62,264 bases of DNA from assembly GCF_003334305.1 (NCBI RefSeq), contig NZ_QOWS01000027.1. The stretch is one strand, 5' to 3'. The position numbers and the translations under genes were made by a program. Positions 16,306 to 28,637 of this stretch are shown here, in pieces. The notes under the pieces were generated by a model that was not told where the DNA came from, ran no database searches, and saw only the letters and a list, made by a program, of their open reading frames with translations. The DNA is from Escherichia coli. Lineage in GTDB: Bacteria > Pseudomonadota > Gammaproteobacteria > Enterobacterales > Enterobacteriaceae. The stretch's first letter is position 1. Each line of letters starts with the position of its first letter.

Positions 16306-17088
16306 GTGTTTAATGATATCAGAGGTGACGTCACATCGGGTTCTGATAGTTTATTGCAGGCAATACAGAAACGAGAATTCAAACCATACATTCAGCCTAT
16401 TGTTTGTGCCAGCAACCATAAAATTATTGGTGGCGAGTTGCTTGTCCGTTGGCATACATCTCATAGAGGAGTAATTTATCCAGATAGTTTTATAGATAAT
16501 ATGGAGAAAGCTGGGATTCTGTCTGAGCTTACTTGTTCTATAATCAATGAGGTGGTTGTTAATTTTGATGGTGAGAATAAATTTAATGGTGAGGATTTTA
16601 TTCTTCACGTAAATGTCGCTCCATCTCTATTGCATAATAAAAAATTCATATCCACCTGTATAAACGCTGCAAAAAAAAACAACCTGTCATTAGTTCTTGA
16701 ATTAACTGAACAGTATTTTTTTACTGTGGATAGCAAAACCATATCCACCTTTCATTGTCTAAAGGAGTCGGGTGTGCAATTTGCTTTAGATGATTTTGGG
16801 ACGGGGTATTCAAACTTATTTTATCTAAAATATTTTACAGTGGATTTTATAAAAGTAGATAAGATGTTTACCCAGGATTTAGAAGGTTGTAAACAGTCTC
16901 GTTACATTATAGAAGCAATTCTTGAATTATCCAGGAAGTTAAATATAAAAACTATCGTGGAAGGAGTTGAAACCATGGAGTTAGTAAATAAATTAATGTT
17001 GCTGGGGGTTGATTATTTTCAAGGTTATTACTTTGGTCAGGCTATTGAGCTATGTTCGTTTATTAGAGAATATAGAAAGACTGTATAG
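16306..17088 (+). CDS. EAL-domain protein (putative c-di-GMP phosphodiesterase), fimbria-associated (SfaY/PapY-like)
   Basis: 260 aa; EAL signature residues present (ELLVRW, NVAP, ELTE, DDFGTGYS, KVD, EGVE, QGYYFG); GTG start preceded by AAGGAG. Confidence 0.8.
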   Translation: MFNDIRGDVTSGSDSLLQAIQKREFKPYIQPIVCASNHKIIGGELLVRWHTSHRGVIYPDSFIDNMEKAGILSELTCSIINEVVVNFDGENKFNGEDFILHVNVAPSLLHNKKFISTCINAAKKNNLSLVLELTEQYFFTVDSKTISTFHCLKESGVQFALDDFGTGYSNLFYLKYFTVDFIKVDKMFTQDLEGCKQSRYIIEAILELSRKLNIKTIVEGVETMELVNKLMLLGVDYFQGYYFGQAIELCSFIREYRKTV

Positions 17089-17152
17089 TGATCTTGTTTG
17101 CTAATCTGTGTAAGTGACTTTTCTTAAAAATGCTCGAGTACACATTCCCGTT

Positions 17153-17851
17153 TTAGTTCCATGCATTTTTTGAGATCCCGGCCAAATAATGGTGCTGACG
17201 ATATTCCTCTGGCATCATATTGTTTAGTGATTCATACGGGCGTTCACAGTTATATTCTGACACCCATCTTTCAGTGATTTCCCGCACTTCATTCAGTGTT
17301 CTGAACAGATAAAAATCGAGTATTTCTGTACGGTATGTCCTGTTAAAACGCTCGATGAAAGCGTTCTGCGTCGGCTTACCCGGCTGGATAAACTCCAGTT
17401 TTACTGCATGTTTCTCTGCCCATTCAGCCAGTGCCAGTGAGATAAATTCCGGACCATTATCCATACGTAGCATGACCGGATAGCCACGGTTTGACGCGAT
17501 CCTGTTGAGTACACGAACCACTCGCAGAGCTGGCAGATTCAGATCGATTTCAATCGACAACGCCTCACGGTTAAAGTCATCAACGACATTAAACGTGCGA
17601 AAACGACGGCCACAGACTAGGGCATCATGCATAAAATCGACAGACCAGCTCTGGTTCAGCGCTTCCGGCGTGGCCAGTGGCGAGGGATTACGCACCAGCA
17701 ACCGCTGTTTGCCCTTACGGCGAAAGTTCAGCTTCAGCAGACAATAAATACGATGGATCCTTTTGTGATTCCACGGGTATCCCTGCCGCCGCAAAACCTG
17801 GAAAAGTTTCGGAAAACCGTATCGTGGGTATCGCTCTGCCACTGCCTGCAA
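17153..17851 (-). CDS. IS3-family transposase OrfB (DDE integrase core), expressed by -1 frameshift from orfA
   Basis: DDE-region motifs (NGPEF, QNAFIERFNRTYRTE, ERPYESL); true coding region extends upstream to the slippery site near 18004. Confidence 0.8.
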   Translation of the reverse strand: MQAVAERYPRYGFPKLFQVLRRQGYPWNHKRIHRIYCLLKLNFRRKGKQRLLVRNPSPLATPEALNQSWSVDFMHDALVCGRRFRTFNVVDDFNREALSIEIDLNLPALRVVRVLNRIASNRGYPVMLRMDNGPEFISLALAEWAEKHAVKLEFIQPGKPTQNAFIERFNRTYRTEILDFYLFRTLNEVREITERWVSEYNCERPYESLNNMMPEEYRQHHYLAGISKNAWN

Positions 17852-17984
17852 AGCGACAATAACGAGTTCGTCAGGCGTGGTATCCGGGCGGTAATGGTAA
17901 ACCGTTCTGCTCAGGTTCAGACTCCGGCAGGCCTGACGGATACTGAGTCCGAACGTCGTTATCAGATGAGTAACCAGCTCACGC

Positions 17985-18263
17985 TTAAAGGCTAGTTTTA
18001 AAGCTTTTTTCGATAACGTCTTTCAGCGCCCTGTTCTCAAGACTCAGGTCGGCAAACATCTGTTTGAGACGTGGGTTCTCGTCCTCAAGATCCTTGATCT
18101 TTTTAATATCAGAAGCCTCCATGCCACCGTATCTGGACTTCCAGTTGTAGTAGGTGGCTTCAGAAATACCGGCCTCCCGGCAGACATCTTTAACGGTTCG
18201 TCCGGCTTCAACTGACTTAATCACAGCGATGATCTGATGCTCAGTAAAACGGGCTTTACGCAT
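17985..18263 (-). CDS. IS3-family transposase OrfA (HTH)
   Basis: 92 aa, MRKARFTEHQIIAVIKSVEAGRTVKDVCREAGISEATYYNWKSRYGG; strong SD GAAGGAG upstream. Confidence 0.85.
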   Translation of the reverse strand: MRKARFTEHQIIAVIKSVEAGRTVKDVCREAGISEATYYNWKSRYGGMEASDIKKIKDLEDENPRLKQMFADLSLENRALKDVIEKSFKTSL

Positions 18264-18474
18264 AGCGATCTCCTTCGTTAGCAGATTGATTATGCCGGAT
18301 GATCTCTAAATATGAATGGCACGATTATGCGGGATACTTACACCCCCGGGCCACCATTTCTCGCCATATCCGGCTGGTATTATAATTACCTCTTTCTCGT
18401 TGTGTAAAAGCCAGCTCAAGGACTGAAAGCCTTAAAATACATGCTATTAACAAATATTAAAAGAGAATAACCTT

Positions 18475-18502
18475 GAGTGCCCTATAGGACTTTAGGGCAC
18501 TC
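18475..18502 (-). terminator. Putative terminator hairpin downstream of the large helicase gene
   Basis: Perfect inverted repeat gagtgcccta...tagggcactc just 3' of the stop at 18513; weak T-tract. Confidence 0.4.
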
Positions 18503-18512
18503 AATACTGCTA

Positions 18513-21500
18513 TCAGCGCAACAATTTTCTAATATTTTGATGCGCTTGTGGCAGATTTGAACGAAGAAGATATTCATTAAAGGCTATATGAGCATTAGTA
18601 TTCTTTGACTTATATACGTCGTGTTGAAAGTCGGGTCGATCAATAAGACCAGGGTAACTTCCCACTGCAACAGAACGGTCATTCAAACTCACAATCATAG
18701 GTGCCTCCTGAGTTCCCTTAATTAGGCATTGAAAACCATCCAATTCCAGACTTGCCCTCAATTGAGACAATTTTTCTACCTGAATATCAGGTGAAGCACA
18801 ACGAGGAACCATTCCGTATAGAGCATAACGAAGTAAAGATGCACCTAGTTTCCTATCGAGACGGCTTTGTATATGCTGGTTGTGGAAATGATTGAGACAA
18901 TCTGTACAGGAGGTATCGCACTCACAACCTTCTAACAATGCGAGTGTTGCAGTAAGAATGTCATCTAGATTCGCTGCTGCTACTTCCGCATAACCCGCAC
19001 CGCCAGATAAAGTATCATAAAGGAAGAGATCCAATGCCTGAGTATCTTCCTCTATAGTGGGTAAAATTCTGAAACCAGAGCCAAACTCAGCAGGATCAAG
19101 ATCCAGTTGTTTATGGCGACTAGCTGCAAGCCTTAGTGCTTCCGCTATTGTATATAATGCATCTTCATACATCCGTAAAACGATAGCATTTGAAGTATCA
19201 GTTACAAGCGGAGACCCAACGGTTATTCGTAATAAAAGCAAATCAGTACGGAAATCATGTCCGAGAAAAACGCGTTTATACTCGCCAGAGCATAAGCGAG
19301 GCGTTTCCTTAGTTGCTATATATTTATACGGTCTTTCATGTGCCCCCTTTGCCGGTGAGTAGGAATCATAAACGGAGGCCGCACCACATTCGCAACATAC
19401 TGAAAAACCACTGGACCCCCCCTCATTTTTCCCTCGGTTCACCGTCACCAGTTTCTGATCTATTGCGTGAGTAAAAACAATATGAGCACCTCCATTATTG
19501 AACTTAAAATCTTCAGGATCAACAGGTTGTGGATATTGTGCCGCAGTTACATAGGTGATTTCTTGCTCTCTGTCGTCCTCATTAAGTTCCTTGGCATTTT
19601 CAGGTCCAAAGACTTCGGGCTGAATCATTATTTCTACTTTTAGAATGCCACCACAGATCGGACAAGTATTTTCGCTATTCTGATTATTATGAGGATCGCG
19701 GACAAAAGAGCACTTATCGCAATGAATAAACTTTTTGGGATTATTGAAAAGCTTTCTTGCCCGGTTTAGTTCGCCTTTCAATGCATTAGAAAAAACACCA
19801 CCAGAGCGATAGGTTTTCCTATCAATAACAATCAAACGTCCCGGGGCATATTCACTCAGAGCCTGAGAAATTGATTGCTGAGGCTGTTGTACTGTTCGCA
19901 CCTCAAAAGAACCTCTAATATTCTTTACAATTTTTTCTACCAAGAAACTACAGAGGCTTGTAGGAAATGCATAACTTGGTAATAAACCATGGTAAAACAG
20001 GAACTCAAGTAATTCTTCTTGTGCAAATTTCATTCCACCAGAAGTCTGCTCATCATCTTCATTTTCCTCATCAACAAGAACGGCAATTTGTGGAACAATT
20101 TCAGCCAGCCCATGGAGTGTATTTAAAAATTCCTCTGCTACCTTAGCAAACCAGTCACTGGCAGAAAGCCCTCCAGTTTCAAGAACAGGAGGAAGCCATG
20201 CTGCAACACTTGTTCTCAAATCACCATTAGTAGATAGAATACGGTTTTTAACCCAATTATTAAAGCTATCGAGATTTAGGCCAGTATCTTTTGCTCCATG
20301 AAAAAAATCTCGTGTAGTACCAAGTGCTTTCTCAAGTATGGCAGTTTTCTCTGTGGGATTATAAATTCCTTGTTCCATTAACTCGTGAAAAAAGGTCTGA
20401 ACTAAAAAAGAATGAACGTGTCTTCTGGCTATTTTGGGATTATTTACTTTCACTTCAGGTGTACGAGGAGAACCTGCAACAATGCGTTCAGGATTAAGGA
20501 AATAATAACTATCATGAGGGCCATTTTGAGAATATGTAACCACCGTTGAAACAGATGCGCCACGGCGGCCTGCTCGCCCAGCACGTTGCTGATAATTTTC
20601 TCGTTGCGGAGGGACGTTTCTTAAAGCAACAGCAACCAGAGATCCAATATCAACCCCCACTTCCATCGTCGTCGTACAACTAAGTACATCAATGGGCTTG
20701 TCGTTATCATTAATAAGAACATCTTGGAATCTCAGTTCGTAGAGTTCTGTAGTGGCATGAACGCTGGCCCTATCTCTATGTGAGAGTTGAGCAGTATGCT
20801 CTTCAACGCTAAGGTTTAGAAGCCGCGAATTTGAAACCAAAACTTCTTCTACCGGCGAACGCCAGAATCCTTTTCGTGCATTAATATAGCTGCTTTCCGA
20901 CGGCTCGACTGTTTTGACACTGTTACTACCACAAGCAAGGCAAGTAGAATGTTCTAAAGCAAATGGCATTAGTGCCGTGCAGTCATTACATTGTTTCCAG
21001 ACATGCAAGAGATCTATTTTCAGACGTAGTGCATTTGGAGCAAGAAAGTAGACACCATCTTTTCCTAATGTCAGATGAGTACGAAAAATCTCCTCCAAAA
21101 CTTCCACATAAAGCTCCCCCATAGCAGGATGCTGTATCAGGGTTTTCCTAAGAGCTTTTCCAAACCGTCCTTGACTACCCCAAGTGGGTTTGTAGAATCC
21201 AGCGGCTTTGATTCGTAGTGTCGAATCAATAGATTCATCAAAAGCAAATTCAGTGAGTAAGGTATCAATCCAAGCAACAGCTAAAGCATGAACATCCTTG
21301 CTCTCAATATTGAGCTTCTTGGACTGCACATCTTCCCACATTTTTTTTGATTTAAGCTGCGATGGTTCAACAAAACCAACTGTTGTTCCGGAAAGAGAAT
21401 AGTAATTGCTACATAAAAGTTTAAGCAACGCTATTTTATATCGTGACGGTGACTCTTGGGGACTGAAGTTATCATCAAAAGCTTGAGCCAGATCGCTATT

Positions 21501-24023
21501 ATAATCACGATAAAATTCATCACGGGCCATTACAACTTTTCGTGAATCTTCCCCATCAAAAATAAGCAAGTCATGTTCAGAAAGGACTGATAGGAAAGCA
21601 AGGTAAAGTACTGATGTTGGTTTGGGTTCCCGATTGATATCTTTCAGTTTAGAACAGGCGAGAGCAATGGATTGCCGAAACAAATCAAGCTCAATATCTC
21701 TAGGAATATCACGTGCAAGCCGAGCTGCTTTTTGTCGGCCATCAGAAAAAATAAGTACTTTTTTTCCCCCATTGGGATGTTTACCATCAATAGGACGACT
21801 CGCTGGCTGGTGAGATATCTGTGTACGTACTAACGTTGTAAAAGGTGCTTCCCCTTTTGTAACATGATCCATAATTTTAGACGGTTCATTCTGAGCACTT
21901 CTTGTCTTACGCATACAAACAGGGCATTCATCAAATGTAATTTCAGATCCAGACTTAACTCGGTCAGGTATAAAGACTTTACGATAACCAGAATCCTCAT
22001 CTTGACACTGTTTAGAAAGGCGTCCTGTTGCTATATGTAGCCATCTGTCCTGGTAATCACTATGTACATGAGGTGTTTCCTCGACCAATATATCTATGGG
22101 AACAAGATCGATATCCTCATCTTCTGATAATGGTCCGTTCGGCTGGTGCCATACAAAGTCCATTTCGGAACTAACGTATCCACGAATAAAAGCCGCACCG
22201 CAGTCACGGTGGGTAAATAATTCGTAGACTCGCCCTTTTGAAGCGCATTTACATTGATCCAGTGGTTTCGTATAAAGGCGGCCAAGTATAGTTGGCCCAC
22301 TATGGTTACCCAAACGTTGATTACAATCGGGATCTATACAGGCATAAAGACCTGGTAATCCCCGATAAAAAAGATGCATGCGAGTTGGAATAAGCACTCT
22401 GCCATCGGATGCCCTCTGAGCATAGCAACCCAATGCGAGTAATGCATCTGTCGCTCGCTCTGCAATTTGCTGTGGAGAGTCTGGAAAAAGGTTTTCACTC
22501 AAGATATTTAGCTTAACCGCTTTACCTGAAACTATTTCAATAAGCGTTTCAATAGGACCAAAACCAGTCAAATTATCAAATAACCAATTACGTAGTGTAC
22601 TATGATCTTTTATCATCGGCTTTTGCCAGCCCATTCGTTCGGCAAGAGACTCTATTGCTGCATATGCAGATTCAAGATCCTCAGCTACGCACTGAAATGA
22701 ATTTAGGTCGAATTCAGCCAGTGCATTAGCTTCTTTACTGGTAACAATTTGTGACTCAGGACGCGATTCCCTTGTACCCTCAATAATTCGAAATTTCCTC
22801 GAAGAGGTTGGTGATAAGCCAGTTAAGTCTTGGGCAAAACGTTCTCCATCCTCAATGGACCCTAGACTAGCACTGGTAAGGATGCAGCGCATACGTTCCC
22901 GGGGAATATCCAACCGAGCACAGAGGCGACGTATTAAAAGGGCTACCTCTGCTCCCCCTGCTCCTCTATACATATGCGCTTCATCAAGCACTAAGATAAG
23001 CTCATTCATCTCATCAGCTTTGAGCCATTCCTTAGTCTGCTCAAAAATATTACGCTCGATAGGTCGCATCAGCATATACTCAAGCATGGAGTAGTTCGTT
23101 ATCAGTAATTCTGGACAGCGATTCTGCATTTCATGCCGGGTCATTAGCTCACGATCCTCAGGCTGGGTAATTAGCCTCTCCCCCCAATTGTTCAAAACAA
23201 ATTGCTTACCCGTTTTTTTGCCTGAGACGTAGGTTTTAGCCTGAGATGCGCTTTGCCCATAAAAAGCATCAAGATCTTTACTTGGCCAGCGACCAATGCG
23301 GTTCAGTTCCGCACGTACGGGGGCGTTATTTGCGAGTTTATTGTAAAACTCATCGAAAAGGGGTTTGATAAAAAGCTCGTCTCGTCTAGAGCTACGACGA
23401 CCAGGGTAAGGCGTTCTTCCCGTATAAGCGCCAAAGCGTACAGGGGCACATCTTCCAGATCTCAGTATTTTAGAGGCTTCAGAATCACCAAAAAGACGTC
23501 TGATACGAGCAAGTTGATCGTTAACTAATGCATTCATTGGATATAATAAAATTGCTCTACAACCTGGAAGGGATGCAGATTTAGGTCTCTCGGAAGATTC
23601 AATCGCCAATTTACCAATAATTGGCATTAGAAAGCTTTCAGTCTTACCGGAGCCTGTACCTGTTGCAATGACCAGATCAGAAGCGTCTTCGCCAAGAAAT
23701 GACTCAAGTGCCTGTGATTGGTGTTTATAGGGGCGTTGATAGAGGCCAATTCCAAGTTCTGATAGTTGAGTTAGCACATTACTTGCTGCTTCGGGAATAG
23801 GCAATTCACTGTATGGCGCACCAGGTTCATAAATTGGGGTTGCTTCTATATAAGGAGCTTGAGCAATAGTTTCATTTTGCTGTAAAAGCGCTCGTCGCTC
23901 AGCAATTAACCCTTCATCCCGGATATGATATTGTGCCTCAATGTATTTTCTCAGATTCTCACTAAGGCTTTTCACGGTATCATGTATACCTGAACGTTCA
24001 GTTACTTTATTTTTATTAATCAT
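18513..24023 (-). CDS. druE: Giant SF2 DEAH-box helicase with Cys-rich C-terminal region; DruE-like (Druantia type I)
   Basis: 1836 aa; Walker A ATGTGSGKT (nt ~23643-23666), DEAH box ILVLDEAHM (~22971-22997), motif VI QRAGRAGRRG (~20559-20591), C-terminal Cys clusters (CDKCSF...CPICGG, CCECGAA, CECDTSCTDC) consistent with a DUF1998-like zinc-binding module. Confidence 0.8.
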   Translation of the reverse strand: MINKNKVTERSGIHDTVKSLSENLRKYIEAQYHIRDEGLIAERRALLQQNETIAQAPYIEATPIYEPGAPYSELPIPEAASNVLTQLSELGIGLYQRPYKHQSQALESFLGEDASDLVIATGTGSGKTESFLMPIIGKLAIESSERPKSASLPGCRAILLYPMNALVNDQLARIRRLFGDSEASKILRSGRCAPVRFGAYTGRTPYPGRRSSRRDELFIKPLFDEFYNKLANNAPVRAELNRIGRWPSKDLDAFYGQSASQAKTYVSGKKTGKQFVLNNWGERLITQPEDRELMTRHEMQNRCPELLITNYSMLEYMLMRPIERNIFEQTKEWLKADEMNELILVLDEAHMYRGAGGAEVALLIRRLCARLDIPRERMRCILTSASLGSIEDGERFAQDLTGLSPTSSRKFRIIEGTRESRPESQIVTSKEANALAEFDLNSFQCVAEDLESAYAAIESLAERMGWQKPMIKDHSTLRNWLFDNLTGFGPIETLIEIVSGKAVKLNILSENLFPDSPQQIAERATDALLALGCYAQRASDGRVLIPTRMHLFYRGLPGLYACIDPDCNQRLGNHSGPTILGRLYTKPLDQCKCASKGRVYELFTHRDCGAAFIRGYVSSEMDFVWHQPNGPLSEDEDIDLVPIDILVEETPHVHSDYQDRWLHIATGRLSKQCQDEDSGYRKVFIPDRVKSGSEITFDECPVCMRKTRSAQNEPSKIMDHVTKGEAPFTTLVRTQISHQPASRPIDGKHPNGGKKVLIFSDGRQKAARLARDIPRDIELDLFRQSIALACSKLKDINREPKPTSVLYLAFLSVLSEHDLLIFDGEDSRKVVMARDEFYRDYNSDLAQAFDDNFSPQESPSRYKIALLKLLCSNYYSLSGTTVGFVEPSQLKSKKMWEDVQSKKLNIESKDVHALAVAWIDTLLTEFAFDESIDSTLRIKAAGFYKPTWGSQGRFGKALRKTLIQHPAMGELYVEVLEEIFRTHLTLGKDGVYFLAPNALRLKIDLLHVWKQCNDCTALMPFALEHSTCLACGSNSVKTVEPSESSYINARKGFWRSPVEEVLVSNSRLLNLSVEEHTAQLSHRDRASVHATTELYELRFQDVLINDNDKPIDVLSCTTTMEVGVDIGSLVAVALRNVPPQRENYQQRAGRAGRRGASVSTVVTYSQNGPHDSYYFLNPERIVAGSPRTPEVKVNNPKIARRHVHSFLVQTFFHELMEQGIYNPTEKTAILEKALGTTRDFFHGAKDTGLNLDSFNNWVKNRILSTNGDLRTSVAAWLPPVLETGGLSASDWFAKVAEEFLNTLHGLAEIVPQIAVLVDEENEDDEQTSGGMKFAQEELLEFLFYHGLLPSYAFPTSLCSFLVEKIVKNIRGSFEVRTVQQPQQSISQALSEYAPGRLIVIDRKTYRSGGVFSNALKGELNRARKLFNNPKKFIHCDKCSFVRDPHNNQNSENTCPICGGILKVEIMIQPEVFGPENAKELNEDDREQEITYVTAAQYPQPVDPEDFKFNNGGAHIVFTHAIDQKLVTVNRGKNEGGSSGFSVCCECGAASVYDSYSPAKGAHERPYKYIATKETPRLCSGEYKRVFLGHDFRTDLLLLRITVGSPLVTDTSNAIVLRMYEDALYTIAEALRLAASRHKQLDLDPAEFGSGFRILPTIEEDTQALDLFLYDTLSGGAGYAEVAAANLDDILTATLALLEGCECDTSCTDCLNHFHNQHIQSRLDRKLGASLLRYALYGMVPRCASPDIQVEKLSQLRASLELDGFQCLIKGTQEAPMIVSLNDRSVAVGSYPGLIDRPDFQHDVYKSKNTNAHIAFNEYLLRSNLPQAHQNIRKLLR

Positions 24024-25063
24024 ATTTCATTCCGTCGCGTGAATTCGTTAATCCAAATAATACCAAGCCCTTCAAAAGCGCTACGCACTATGGGTAATAT
24101 TTCCTCGGGGAATACATGGTGTGTTATTCCTGAATGTTCATTTTCAAAACCTGATTCTCTCCAGCCTAGCAGGAGTACCTTCGTTTCTCGTCTTGGTAAT
24201 CTTCTGGTTAATCTTAATCTTGCTAGCCCATTAGATATTTTGATACGGATCTTTAGCGGACAATTATCTTTTGTATCGAGAAAAAAACGTAATCTTCTGA
24301 CATCATCAGACGATTCTAACGAATTCATTCTACATAAGCGTCCAGCTTCAATTTCTCCTAAATAATAGGAAAAGTGATTATCAACGGACATTCTGCATAA
24401 GTAGATTTGCTTTTTATTAAAAGAAAGTTCTGACAAATGGAGCCATTTTCCCCGCACATATGCAGTCGTTTCACTCATATTGCTAGGCGCATCGATAAAG
24501 CCGGAAATAGTTCCAGATAGTAGTCTGGATGACCATTCTTCATTGCCTTCTGCTGGGGCACCAATCCACTCATTTGCATCCCAGATTTCAACACTTCCAG
24601 TACACACTTTTTCTTCAACCAAGCGAACTCTTCCAGCAGATTTAGCTACCACGCCCGTTGAAAATGTACAGGAAGGCTCTCCACCAAAAAAAACAGCCAT
24701 CTTATTGTCAATTCGTACTGCATGTGGGGGAGCTGTGAGCCAATTACCACCTTCTAACTTAATCATGTCACCCAATTCAGCCAAGCTGTTCAATATAGAC
24801 ATAATGCCCGGATGTATAGCATTATCAATATCAGCAATGTCTGGCCATAAAGGTACCAATTTTCGCCTTACTGCACTAGTGAGTCGAAGCGAGGTTACAG
24901 TTTGCCTAGCTTCTTCTGTTTCAGATATAGAATATTGATATAATACGCTCCTTAAGCATTCTGAAACTGCTGAAATTCTTAACCCTTCATCATCAAATCG
25001 ACAATTTAATGCAGTTGATAACATATCCAGTGCTTTGTCTCGTGATACTGCTCTCCACTCCAT
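24020..25063 (-). CDS. druD: DruD-like protein (Druantia type I component, unknown function)
   Basis: ~347 aa from ATG at 25063 with SD GAGGAGG (track ORF extends to 25078); stop overlaps the druE start (ATGA). Confidence 0.6.
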   Translation of the reverse strand: MEWRAVSRDKALDMLSTALNCRFDDEGLRISAVSECLRSVLYQYSISETEEARQTVTSLRLTSAVRRKLVPLWPDIADIDNAIHPGIMSILNSLAELGDMIKLEGGNWLTAPPHAVRIDNKMAVFFGGEPSCTFSTGVVAKSAGRVRLVEEKVCTGSVEIWDANEWIGAPAEGNEEWSSRLLSGTISGFIDAPSNMSETTAYVRGKWLHLSELSFNKKQIYLCRMSVDNHFSYYLGEIEAGRLCRMNSLESSDDVRRLRFFLDTKDNCPLKIRIKISNGLARLRLTRRLPRRETKVLLLGWRESGFENEHSGITHHVFPEEILPIVRSAFEGLGIIWINEFTRRNEI

Positions 25064-25074
25064 TAACCACCTCC

Positions 25075-26958
25075 TCAAGAAGATATTTTTGCACTATAAT
25101 TTTTTAATTCACGATTGGCAATATCTTCTATCTTTTGGACGGGGCCACCTTTAATTTTTGCCCATGTAAGAGTATAAAAAGACAAGACAGAATAAAGATC
25201 ATAAATATAATTTCCATTAGGGACTCTTATGAGTGAAGTATAGAAAATATGAACCATTCTCTTCCACAAAGTTCCCCCATCAAATCCAGCTTCGTCCAGT
25301 AATGCTCTTAATTCATCTACATAATCATCAACACTATCAAGCTGTAGTCCATCAATATTTGTCCATTTATCCTTGGCAAGACAACCTGGTTTCAATTGGG
25401 GTAAAATAGCAGATAAACCACGCATTTTTAATGTATCAGTATCAATAACTGGTCCCAACTCGGCCAACATTCCTCCATCAGGGAATGTAGCAGGGCCTTG
25501 TTTCCAAGTAGCTATCAATGCCAGATGGTCATAATTTGTTGGATGTATTTGCCGTTGAACAACTATATCTCTAATTGCCGCTCCATAAATCTCAAATGCT
25601 GAAAGATTGGCCCCTTTCAAAAGGAGACAGCGAGATGATTCAGCTATAGTCTCTATAAAATCAAAAGAATCCATGTCAGAAATAATACCAACTGGAACTC
25701 TCCATATGTGATAACGTGGTGCACCAATAGCAATGGCAATTGCATCCGCGATAATATCTGCCAAAGAGCCACTGAATTGAATGATTTGTCCAGAAACGAA
25801 GGTAGCTAATGTCAATCTAGCCAATGTTTCTGCTGAATTTTTTGTTAACCCAACAGCCTGTAAATTTAAAGAAATTCTATTAGATATGTCTTCGGAGGAT
25901 GAAAGATATTCATAATTTTCATAGTGCGCTATTTCATGGAATTTTGTAAATCTATTGGTGACACTCACTTTGCTAGCTTGAGATGTGTTTATTTCCAGTG
26001 TATCTATTCGTTCAGTGAGTTTTTTTAATTCATTGATATAATCTAACTCGTTGTTCTTTCTTTTATTATCACACAAGATAGTTAATGCATTTTTTAACTC
26101 TGAAATTTCATTAGCCATACTTTTTATCAATTTTTCATGCTCAGAAATGTCATTCATAGCCAGAGCATTAAAATCTAATTTCTCTTGAAGAGATAATATT
26201 AGCTGTTTGTTTTTTTCATTAAAATGATAAAGCTCGTCAATAGATTTATTAGCAATATCAGATTGTTTAGTCTCTGAGTTTATTAAGGATTGTAGTTCGT
26301 TAATTATTTTTAAATTGCTCTTTTCATTATTAAAGTAATTATCAAACCGTTCGGAAAAAGCATCTATTTTTAACTCAAGCTCTTTAATATGGTTATTTTT
26401 TTTCTCCACATTATCGGCAATTAAACTAATACGTGCTTCAAGCTCATCTAAACGAATTGGAAGAGTATCAACCACGATATCGCGGGCAAGAACAACTGCA
26501 GGAGGAAAAAGGTTAAATGCATTTATAACGTCTGGATCATTAGCAAACCCACTAAAGATAAACAGGCGCTCGATATTCTCTCTAGCAACTTTAGGAAAGT
26601 TTTTAGCAAGCTCTCTAATAAAAATAGAGCCAGAGTTTTCTTTTAATCCTAAATTATTAATCATACTAAATGATTTGTCAATTTTCTCTTCAGCCCAAAA
26701 CTGCCAAAAAAGAGAAAAACTTTTCCATGCTTTTCTCTCCTCAGAGGAAGGATGTGACTGGAACATATACCCAATCAATCTTTTCTGTTTTTCTTTAATT
26801 TCAGTGGGATGTCCTGCCCTGAATCCCGGTACTTTTGGTAAACAACCAAAAGCTTTACGTCGTAAAGTTGGAGAAATCTCATTGATAAAGTTAACAATTT
26901 CGGATTGTCCCAACTTAGAGATCCGTTCCTTTGCCTCTTGGCTATATTGGTAACTCAT
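25075..26958 (-). CDS. druC: DruC-like protein (Druantia type I component) with predicted coiled-coil region
   Basis: 627 aa; K/E/L-rich heptad-like central segment; ATG start at 26958. Confidence 0.6.
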   Translation of the reverse strand: MSYQYSQEAKERISKLGQSEIVNFINEISPTLRRKAFGCLPKVPGFRAGHPTEIKEKQKRLIGYMFQSHPSSEERKAWKSFSLFWQFWAEEKIDKSFSMINNLGLKENSGSIFIRELAKNFPKVARENIERLFIFSGFANDPDVINAFNLFPPAVVLARDIVVDTLPIRLDELEARISLIADNVEKKNNHIKELELKIDAFSERFDNYFNNEKSNLKIINELQSLINSETKQSDIANKSIDELYHFNEKNKQLILSLQEKLDFNALAMNDISEHEKLIKSMANEISELKNALTILCDNKRKNNELDYINELKKLTERIDTLEINTSQASKVSVTNRFTKFHEIAHYENYEYLSSSEDISNRISLNLQAVGLTKNSAETLARLTLATFVSGQIIQFSGSLADIIADAIAIAIGAPRYHIWRVPVGIISDMDSFDFIETIAESSRCLLLKGANLSAFEIYGAAIRDIVVQRQIHPTNYDHLALIATWKQGPATFPDGGMLAELGPVIDTDTLKMRGLSAILPQLKPGCLAKDKWTNIDGLQLDSVDDYVDELRALLDEAGFDGGTLWKRMVHIFYTSLIRVPNGNYIYDLYSVLSFYTLTWAKIKGGPVQKIEDIANRELKNYSAKISS

Positions 26959-26969
26959 TCGAAGGCACC

Positions 26970-28616
26970 TTATCTAAAGCGATTACATTCAAATCCATTG
27001 GTCTTAACTTCTTTTACCAATGCTCTATAATGCGGTAATAAGTGTGGTTCCGGCTGCAAATCCACTAATTTCTCAACTAATAAAAAATCATTATTTAAAC
27101 TAAAACCATGGAGGGTGTGCCCCATTTGAAGTATAAAACTTAATATCCGTGAGCGAAGATTAGGAGATAATTCAATAAATTCCCCGTCATCTAATGATAA
27201 CATAGAAGAACTAGGTAAAAATATTTTACCAAGACCTAAAAAATCTATTTCTACATGACATGTTAAGTTTGCTAAGCAATCAGATAATTGAGATAACGCA
27301 ACAGGAGATAGTAACCGCATGCTCTTATCATGAGCTGCAATGTCATCATTAGAAACTAACTTAATAACACTACTTTCAGTTTGTCTTTGAATTCTTGCCA
27401 CTCCTTCAACACCAGAAGGCATAGACATGTATTCTAATTTATGGCCAAACATTCGTGCTTCCATCATAACTTCAATGCATCTTCTTTGATGTAAGGAAAC
27501 GATGGTCTTTTCTTTATTCCTCTTAGTAAAAACCAAATCTATTGAGGGATATTTTCTGGGTACAGAAACGTTTTTTTTATAGAAAGAAAAAAATAAGTTT
27601 ACGTCCTGCTCAATTGAGCCAGAAACGCCCACAAAGTCATTTTCTCCAGGATTAAGAATGAAGAAAGCAGGTGATTTTTCAACACCAATCGCTGAAAGTA
27701 ATAAAGAGGAACCTTGTGCGTACATAGTTGGTCCAACATTTTCTGATGATGTTGGTGCCATATTTGCTGACAACAATATTGTGTCAGAATGAACACATTC
27801 GACATGATTAATACTTGTTTTTTGATTTAGGAACGGCCAAATTGCTGTAATAGATGTTCTGGCAGGAACAACAGGAAGGTATGTAAAAGATTTTAGCCAT
27901 GAAATACTCTCCACAGAAGGGACTTCAGGAATTGTAACAAGAGCTAAATTCCATCCCTGTTTACTAGCTAAACTTTTTATTTCTAATTCATCAGGAAAAT
28001 CTGGAGCAACAGGGTGTCGCCAAAGAAAGGCAAATGTTTCAGTACATCTTAACTCTTGTGCTCGTGGAAATCCCTTCGATGCCCCACGCCCTAAAGCAGT
28101 GAAAACTGCTGCTCCCTCAGAAGGTAAACCGGGGCATTCTCTTTCAACTTCTGTTACAAATTTTGGATCGGGTTCACCACTATATGAAACAATACGGTAA
28201 GATTTTACTGATAATTCAGCACCAATCTGGCGACTCTTTACCATACTCCTCATATCAAGCGTTTGGCTTCTGCCTCCTACATCTAACGTTATCTTTGCTC
28301 TACATAAATTACAGGTTGGCAACACTAATTCTAATGACCACTCTCGACTATTACTTCCGACAGGAATCAATAAGCGCAAATCCATATATCGCTTTGAAAT
28401 AGTTTTAATAGTTTCGATAATGATGGAATTTCCGGGAACAAAATTTTCACAGTCTGACGTACCATGTCCGGGCAAATGAGCAAAATATGGGGGTATAACC
28501 TTCCCTTTACGGAGGTTAACACCTTTTTTACAAACTGGGCAAACATATTGAGCATATTTCGTTGCTCGAGCTGCTAATATCAGTGTCCCGGTGAACTTAT
28601 CAATAGCGTAATTCAC
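26970..28616 (-). CDS. druB: DruB-like protein (Druantia type I component)
   Basis: 548 aa; apparent GTG start with SD GGGGGAG; N-terminal CPVCKK...HLPGHGTSDC zinc-ribbon-like motif. Confidence 0.6.
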   Translation of the reverse strand: MNYAIDKFTGTLILAARATKYAQYVCPVCKKGVNLRKGKVIPPYFAHLPGHGTSDCENFVPGNSIIIETIKTISKRYMDLRLLIPVGSNSREWSLELVLPTCNLCRAKITLDVGGRSQTLDMRSMVKSRQIGAELSVKSYRIVSYSGEPDPKFVTEVERECPGLPSEGAAVFTALGRGASKGFPRAQELRCTETFAFLWRHPVAPDFPDELEIKSLASKQGWNLALVTIPEVPSVESISWLKSFTYLPVVPARTSITAIWPFLNQKTSINHVECVHSDTILLSANMAPTSSENVGPTMYAQGSSLLLSAIGVEKSPAFFILNPGENDFVGVSGSIEQDVNLFFSFYKKNVSVPRKYPSIDLVFTKRNKEKTIVSLHQRRCIEVMMEARMFGHKLEYMSMPSGVEGVARIQRQTESSVIKLVSNDDIAAHDKSMRLLSPVALSQLSDCLANLTCHVEIDFLGLGKIFLPSSSMLSLDDGEFIELSPNLRSRILSFILQMGHTLHGFSLNNDFLLVEKLVDLQPEPHLLPHYRALVKEVKTNGFECNRFR

Positions 28617-28637
28617 TTACTCCCCCTTCAGTTAAGA

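Follow-up and report, generated by a model that had tools for sequence, protein, structure and literature searches.

We analysed a window of 62,264 nucleotides of Escherichia coli DNA (contig NZ_QOWS01000027.1; all coordinates refer to this stretch), in which an insertion sequence (IS) lies on the minus strand between druE, a gene of the Druantia defence cassette, and a module consisting of an EAL-domain gene and a fimbrial operon. Among E. coli chromosome matches, strain A7 (NZ_CP028767.1) is 100% identical to the window across this region. The IS is already annotated in RefSeq. The features discussed below are the following.

16306-17088, plus strand: EAL-domain gene, right-hand neighbour of the IS, at the end of the Pix-like fimbrial operon
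17109-17146, minus strand: 38-nt tail AATGTGTACTCGAGCATTTTTAAGAAAAGTCACTTACA, present in place of the canonical TCTATTTACA and ending in an IS-like TGTAAGT tip
17147-17163, minus strand: 17-nt block CATGGAACTAAAACGGG, shared without mismatch by the younger-type IS and the old remnant (see below), holding the orfB stop
17153-18022, minus strand: orfB frame with HTH_21, rve and rve_3 domains, open, in +1 phase relative to orfA
17985-18263, minus strand: orfA, open reading frame of 92 aa with HTH_Tnp_1 domain
18004-18010, minus strand: AAAAAAG run (A6G), the canonical A7G of the family minus one A
18336-18342, minus strand: left terminal tip (IRL) TGTAAGT, where homology of relatives starts; the IRL continues TGTAAGTATCCCGCATAATCG...
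18343-18464: 122-bp spacer, from the druE terminator to the left end of the IS
18513-24023, minus strand: druE, last gene of type I Druantia, left-hand neighbour of the IS
24020-25063: druD
25075-26958: druC
26970-28616: druB
28638-29852: druA

The IS resides in the pheV (tRNA-Phe) island, whose tRNA gene occupies positions 34436-34511. The island begins with an integrase, a pseudogene together with ISEc18, druA-E (type I Druantia) and the IS; these are followed by the EAL-domain gene, the Pix-like chaperone-usher fimbrial operon, an IS21 remnant and pgtABCP. According to the RefSeq annotation of the identical region of strain A7, druA-E (18513-29852) make up a complete type I Druantia anti-phage system. 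Within the island, Druantia genes are flanked by a copy of ISEc18 on one side and by the IS studied here on the other. At 30229-32711, between the island integrase and druA, the ISEc18 (IS481-like) transposase adjoins a frameshifted phosphoethanolamine transferase pseudogene. Beyond the fimbrial operon, at 1240-7463 and 7808-8676, pgtP, pgtC, pgtB and pgtA (phosphoglycerate transport) are found along with an IS21 (istA) pseudogene, a layout resembling PAI V of UPEC 536. The pheV locus of UPEC 536 used for comparison covers the integrase-to-fimbrial part only.

Assignment of the element to the IS3 family, made in an earlier note on this DNA, agrees with domain and family-model matches of its HTH OrfA and DDE OrfB. 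When the conceptual OrfAB fusion is searched, Pfam detects HTH_Tnp_1, HTH_21, rve and rve_3 domains, and the NCBIfam IS3-family model NF033516 scores 281 bits (cut-off 160); the copy combines, as expected of the family, an HTH-containing OrfA with an rve-domain OrfB that fits the family transposase model. The DD(35)E spacing of OrfB, read by inspection of the translation, is intact.

An OrfA with 93% identity carries the depositor's name "IS1400 transposase [E. coli]" in public records. IS1400 is tabulated as a member of the IS3 family, IS407 group, with a 4-bp direct repeat and TG ends (PMC10425158). Judging from sequence and from the depositor's label of the 93%-identical OrfA, the element is IS1400-like (IS3 family, IS407 group), and it may represent an isoform of IS1400 or a sister IS. 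By ISfinder convention, copies belong to the same IS at about 95% nucleotide or 98% amino acid identity. The IS type represented in the window, hereafter the younger type, is approximately 93-95% identical to plasmid and prophage copies. IS1400 (X94452) was first described in the high-pathogenicity island of Yersinia enterocolitica. It resembles the present element in its two-ORF layout (HTH OrfA, DDE OrfB) and TG ends, and relatives of the window copy, about 1.2 kb long, have 4-bp target duplications. In comparison with these IS1400-like relatives, the window copy contains A6G instead of A7G and is devoid of both the canonical right tip and the duplication. The earlier note also proposed comparison with other copies in the same genome; strain A7 carries no second copy, and none was found inside the window.

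The element was originally delimited at 17107-18345, and both boundaries have to be shifted. Copies from unrelated contexts begin TGTAAGTATCCCG, and this common start fixes the left end at 18342. A longer left end, suggested by six flanking bases seemingly common to pks-island copies, was rejected: the flanks differ and the apparent similarity is a BLAST extension. On the right side, homology with family members stops at 17147 and not at 17107. Relatives terminate with ...AAAACGGGTCTATTTACA, 16 nt past the orfB stop, and are thus about 1207 bp long; their right-end sequence is ...TGGAACTAAAACGGGTCTATTTACA, or GGGATACTTACA / GGGTGTGCTTACA in a 76%-identical branch. The last stretch of the window homologous to relatives, up to 17147, is ...AAAACGGG. 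The ten bases that follow, AATGTGTACT, differ from the canonical tip, so that the last 10 nt of the canonical element, TCTATTTACA, are missing from this copy. The window then runs CGAGCATTTTTAAGAAAAGTCACTTACA down to 17109, the site of TGTAAGT.

Other observations made at the ends were confirmed. TGTAAGT is present at each of the proposed tips, reading on the minus strand at 18342-18336 and on the plus strand at 17109-17115, and the terminal repeats do match weakly, as no correspondence extends beyond these 7 nt. Of the TG...CA terminal repeats typical of the IS3 family, the left TGTAAGT at 18342 is in place and the canonical right tip is absent; the second TGTAAGT lies 38 nt outward, on DNA inherited from another insertion. 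The 4-bp target-site duplication of the IS407 group and IS1400, seen in relatives at two loci (ACAT in L010, ATAC in L022), is not found here, just as previously reported. The left flank is GGGG; to the right stands CAGA if the end is placed at 17109, or CGAG, likewise unmatched with GGGG, if the canonical-length end at 17137 is taken. GGGG is not repeated at any candidate right end.

The 38-nt tail proved to be confined to a single locus. Among 5,426 E. coli genomes it was not found outside the EAL locus, neither plasmids (PLSDB) nor IMG/VR contain it, and all ten of its matches in metagenomes (JGI) are situated at the same EAL locus. At 95% identity it also occurs in a second haplotype, which shares the tail, the EAL gene and the fimbrial operon with the window at 93-98% identity. 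This second haplotype is the more widespread one: it was detected in islands at selC, pheV (UPEC 536) and leuX and accounts for 9 of the 10 metagenome matches. Its IS part is a different one, namely a 200-bp 3' remnant encoding OrfB residues 304-370 with about 52% amino acid identity. At the nucleotide level, the last 148 nt of the window IS are 92-94% identical to canonical copies and 87% to plasmid copy L003, versus 74-76% to this old remnant. We considered whether the old remnant is simply a decayed form of the same insertion, and rejected this possibility on account of the 74-76% identity of the IS part against 93-98% in the adjacent flank.

Site-by-site comparison locates the transition between the two types of sequence. 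Toward the right end, 17164 is the last position at which the window has a base specific to the younger type, and 17146 is the first at which it has one specific to the old haplotype, which it follows from there on. The switch therefore falls within the 17-nt identical block (17163-17147). Taken together with its distribution, this suggests that the tail is inherited from an older insertion or its flank. The proposal that one end had been remodelled is hence upheld, with the specification that the right terminus is not the element's own and derives from an older resident IS remnant. The alternative offered along with it, a deletion mediated by the element, is not supported: a simple IS-mediated adjacent deletion would keep the element's own right tip, and this tip is missing.

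The two sides of the IS differ in their stability. The exact OrfA of this copy is always found beside druE with the same 122-bp spacer, and its linkage to druE was seen in every context examined; the right side varies, the IS being cut at 17481, 17418 or 17320 in other strains. The spacer (18343-18464) is in turn always linked to this IS copy and has no match in E. coli outside its own haplotype. A terminator hairpin of druE lies at approximately 18475-18502, and the Druantia locus of strain CE0032f departs from the window at 18465. On the opposite side, the EAL gene belongs to the module in which the older IS remnant was carried. A search for the locus in an IS-free state gave none, because this gene is without close homologue among 100,044 species-representative genomes (best matches only 28-36% identical). 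The EAL/fimbrial module with the 200-bp remnant was recovered at L008, L036, L037 and L038 (SC516, BEN5202, UPEC 536 and SCEC020022) and at L119-L128. IS110 and other transposase fragments precede the module with the old remnant. The EAL/fimbrial module is present at three tRNA genes (selC, pheV and leuX) and behaves as a portable unit.

Could the window nevertheless contain a complete, distinct IS variant of about 17109-18342, with a right inverted repeat TGTAAGTGAC... and a right end 38 nt longer than usual, from which only the duplication has been lost? The exact and correctly oriented TGTAAGT 38 nt past the end of homology speaks for it. This heptamer occurs 5 times on both strands of the 62 kb (6.2 expected), and the probability of meeting it by chance at that position and orientation is roughly 0.002-0.005; moreover, it is conserved in every haplotype that has the tail. 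We nonetheless hold such a variant to be unlikely. No other IS end was found to carry the tail, whether in PLSDB, IMG/VR, JGI metagenomes or 5,426 E. coli genomes; its companions are the EAL flank and a different IS remnant of 75% identity. The relatives with an examined right end (76-95% identity) all stop 16 nt past the orfB stop. The ends of the supposed variant are unmatched beyond the 7-nt tip and are not accompanied by a duplication.

A second peculiarity of the copy concerns the site of translational frameshifting. Both reading frames are indeed open (orfA 18263-17985, orfB 18022-17153), with no stop codon or further frameshift outside the A-run, and the AAAAAAG letters are present at 18010-18004, 16 nt upstream of the orfA stop codon (17987-17985). 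The earlier note took them for an intact A-AAA-AAG signal, which is not correct, since the heptamer is out of phase and orfB is in +1 and not in -1 phase. The orfA frame passes through the run as ...ATC GAA AAA AGC TTT AAA ACT AGC CTT TAA and the orfB frame as TCG AAA AAA GCT TTA (+1). Phase arithmetic gives the same result (18263-17851 = 412 = 1 mod 3). The -1 frame reads CGA AAA AAG CTT TAA, so a -1 slip adds Lys-Leu and then encounters a stop. The arrangement characteristic of the IS3 family, with orfB in -1 phase and the heptamer read in the orfA frame, is found in A7G relatives and not in the window copy. The string AAAAAAG alone is consequently no proof of a working frameshift site, and its phase has to be checked. 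A frameshift-stimulating RNA structure 3' of the run was searched for as well, and nothing significant was predicted (z = 0.38).

Intact relatives have one more A. In the scan of viral contigs (IMG/VR, 75-95% identity), 22 of 24 true family members contain A7G, in the layout ATC GAA AAA AAG CTT TAA, where the orfA stop follows one codon downstream and orfB is in -1 phase. Of the copies outside this locus, seven possess full-length orfA and orfB together with a run in phase for -1 slippage, and each of them has A7G. Of seven A6G loci, five have additional stops or frameshifts, the other two being otherwise intact. Among E. coli records, A6 is present in 54 of 54 that match the frameshift region of this copy at ≥99%, and it is present too in seven contexts with this copy's exact OrfA; when the sequence supplemented with an extra A was used as query, no perfect match was obtained among E. 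coli records. Since all close matches have A6 and relatives have A7G, this copy has lost one A, a deletion that has become fixed here. The -1 arrangement is accordingly lost by this copy and not absent from the family. The loss also explains the C-terminus of OrfA: canonical OrfA of the family has 88 aa and ends with IEKKL, whereas the SFKTSL tail seen here results merely from the missing nucleotide. The suggestion that a functional OrfAB transposase is plausible thus finds no support: intact relatives have A7G where this copy has A6G, orfB is in +1 phase, and a -1 slip ends at once.

RefSeq annotation does not reveal the lesion. The protein is recorded in strain A7 (WP_097344025.1 / UMT19773.1) as a CDS at 17153-18263 with the label "programmed frameshift". 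This CDS spans 1111 nt (1 mod 3), compared with 1112 nt in an A7G relative, and the 370-aa product (...VIEKKALKLAF...) requires a -2 join. The label seems to follow an annotation convention behind which a 1-nt deletion goes unseen. As it is applied despite the -2 join, automated counts of intact IS3 transposases will be inflated. Plasmid copy L003, with the same RefSeq label and likewise a 1111-nt span, also implies a -2 join.

A5 (an in-frame OrfAB fusion), A6 and A7 all exist among OrfA homologues, A6 in several genera, which shows that the A-run is mutable. An A6G-type tail was counted in about 45 of the best 120 OrfA clusters, some of them represented on many contigs, in a tally of C-terminal tails that is biased toward the query's own tail and was used solely to establish the existence of A5, A6 and A7. 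In one branch of the IS1400-like family, 130-aa forms of OrfA arise from A6.

This variety raises the question of whether A6G is functional, with OrfAB arising from a tRNA-Lys shift of +1 or -2 on the run or from omission of one A during transcription by RNA polymerase. A5, A6 and A7 would then be states of a reversible, hypermutable switch, with OrfAB constitutive in A5, regulated by frameshifting in A7 and off or very low in A6, and A6 copies would be reversibly silenced or non-canonically expressed. Besides the coexistence of the three lengths and the occurrence of A6 in several genera, the otherwise undamaged orfA and orfB of this copy fit such a scheme. The codon following the run in the orfA frame, AGC, is not known to be of the rare or stop type that drives efficient +1 shifts. 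Five of the seven A6G loci have suffered further stops or frameshifts, the exact OrfA is found only beside druE, which gives no sign of movement, and the right end is defective regardless. We regard both a switch of this kind and the production of even traces of OrfAB from A6 copies by a non-canonical shift as improbable. A precedent for the +1 phase is provided by the IS1447 subgroup of the IS3 family, in which orfB in +1 is expressed by transcriptional slippage on A9 (PMC6211511). The present copy is similar in that orfB is in +1 phase to orfA beside an A-run. In IS1447, however, slippage needs at least 7 A, and 0-6 A gave no fusion product (PMC6211511); the window copy has only six. IS1447 further belongs to Firmicutes and to a different sequence family, and the +1 phase is a derived lesion in our copy and not the family norm. 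A parallel also exists with IS911, IS3 and IS150, which use -1 frameshifting at A AAA AAG in the orfA frame: their layout is the same as in intact relatives of the window copy, whose own seven letters are shifted by one base from the orfA frame, with orfB in +1.

Although some sequencing platforms are prone to errors in homopolymers, it is hardly conceivable that faulty sequencing or assembly produced the missing A or the odd right end, as the same A6 and junctions occur in one metagenome contig and in more than 50 complete genomes of E. coli that were sequenced independently.

In our opinion, the element is probably a chimera of IS1400-like type (IS3 family, IS407 group) that has become immobile. 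A younger IS1400-like member would have arrived together with the Druantia cassette and been fused with what remained of the 3' part of an older, diverged member already located downstream of the EAL/fimbrial module. The joint lies in the 17-nt identical block spanning the orfB stop. It may have been made by homeologous recombination, or else by an insertion nearby followed by deletion between short direct repeats; for the former, 17 nt of identity is short for a RecA-dependent event. Such joining would remove the 10-nt right tip of the younger element and any target duplication. Loss of the tip and separation of the original flanks would account for the weak inverted repeats and for the missing duplication. 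Separately, the A7G run has lost one A, moving orfB to the +1 phase, after which normal -1 slippage is expected to yield an OrfA-like protein only and no OrfAB transposase. Having neither its own transposase nor a matching right end, the copy would persist as a fixed fossil at the module boundary in the pheV island. The phase, the difference between A7 and A6, the end coordinates, the common tail and the switch interval were observed directly, while we infer the order of these events and which of the two mechanisms made the joint.

Several points weigh against this proposal. A6G is no rarity among family members, low-level OrfAB may be formed by a +1 or -2 tRNA-Lys slip or by transcriptional loss of one A, orfA and orfB are otherwise undamaged, and the search among the 100,044 species representatives yielded no empty site. 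Overall, the element is a fixed and almost certainly immobile relic of a known IS family.

The copy is of an already known kind and changes nothing in IS3 biology. As its hybrid right end indicates, an IS remnant served to join the Druantia defence cassette to the fimbrial module in the pheV pathogenicity island. In the literature, the remnant in the pks (colibactin) island of E. coli is named IS1400 (PMC11707995); to it corresponds a family copy that adjoins clbA at the edge of this island in Nissle 1917. That copy (L138) has kept A7G but has an internal deletion and a frameshift.
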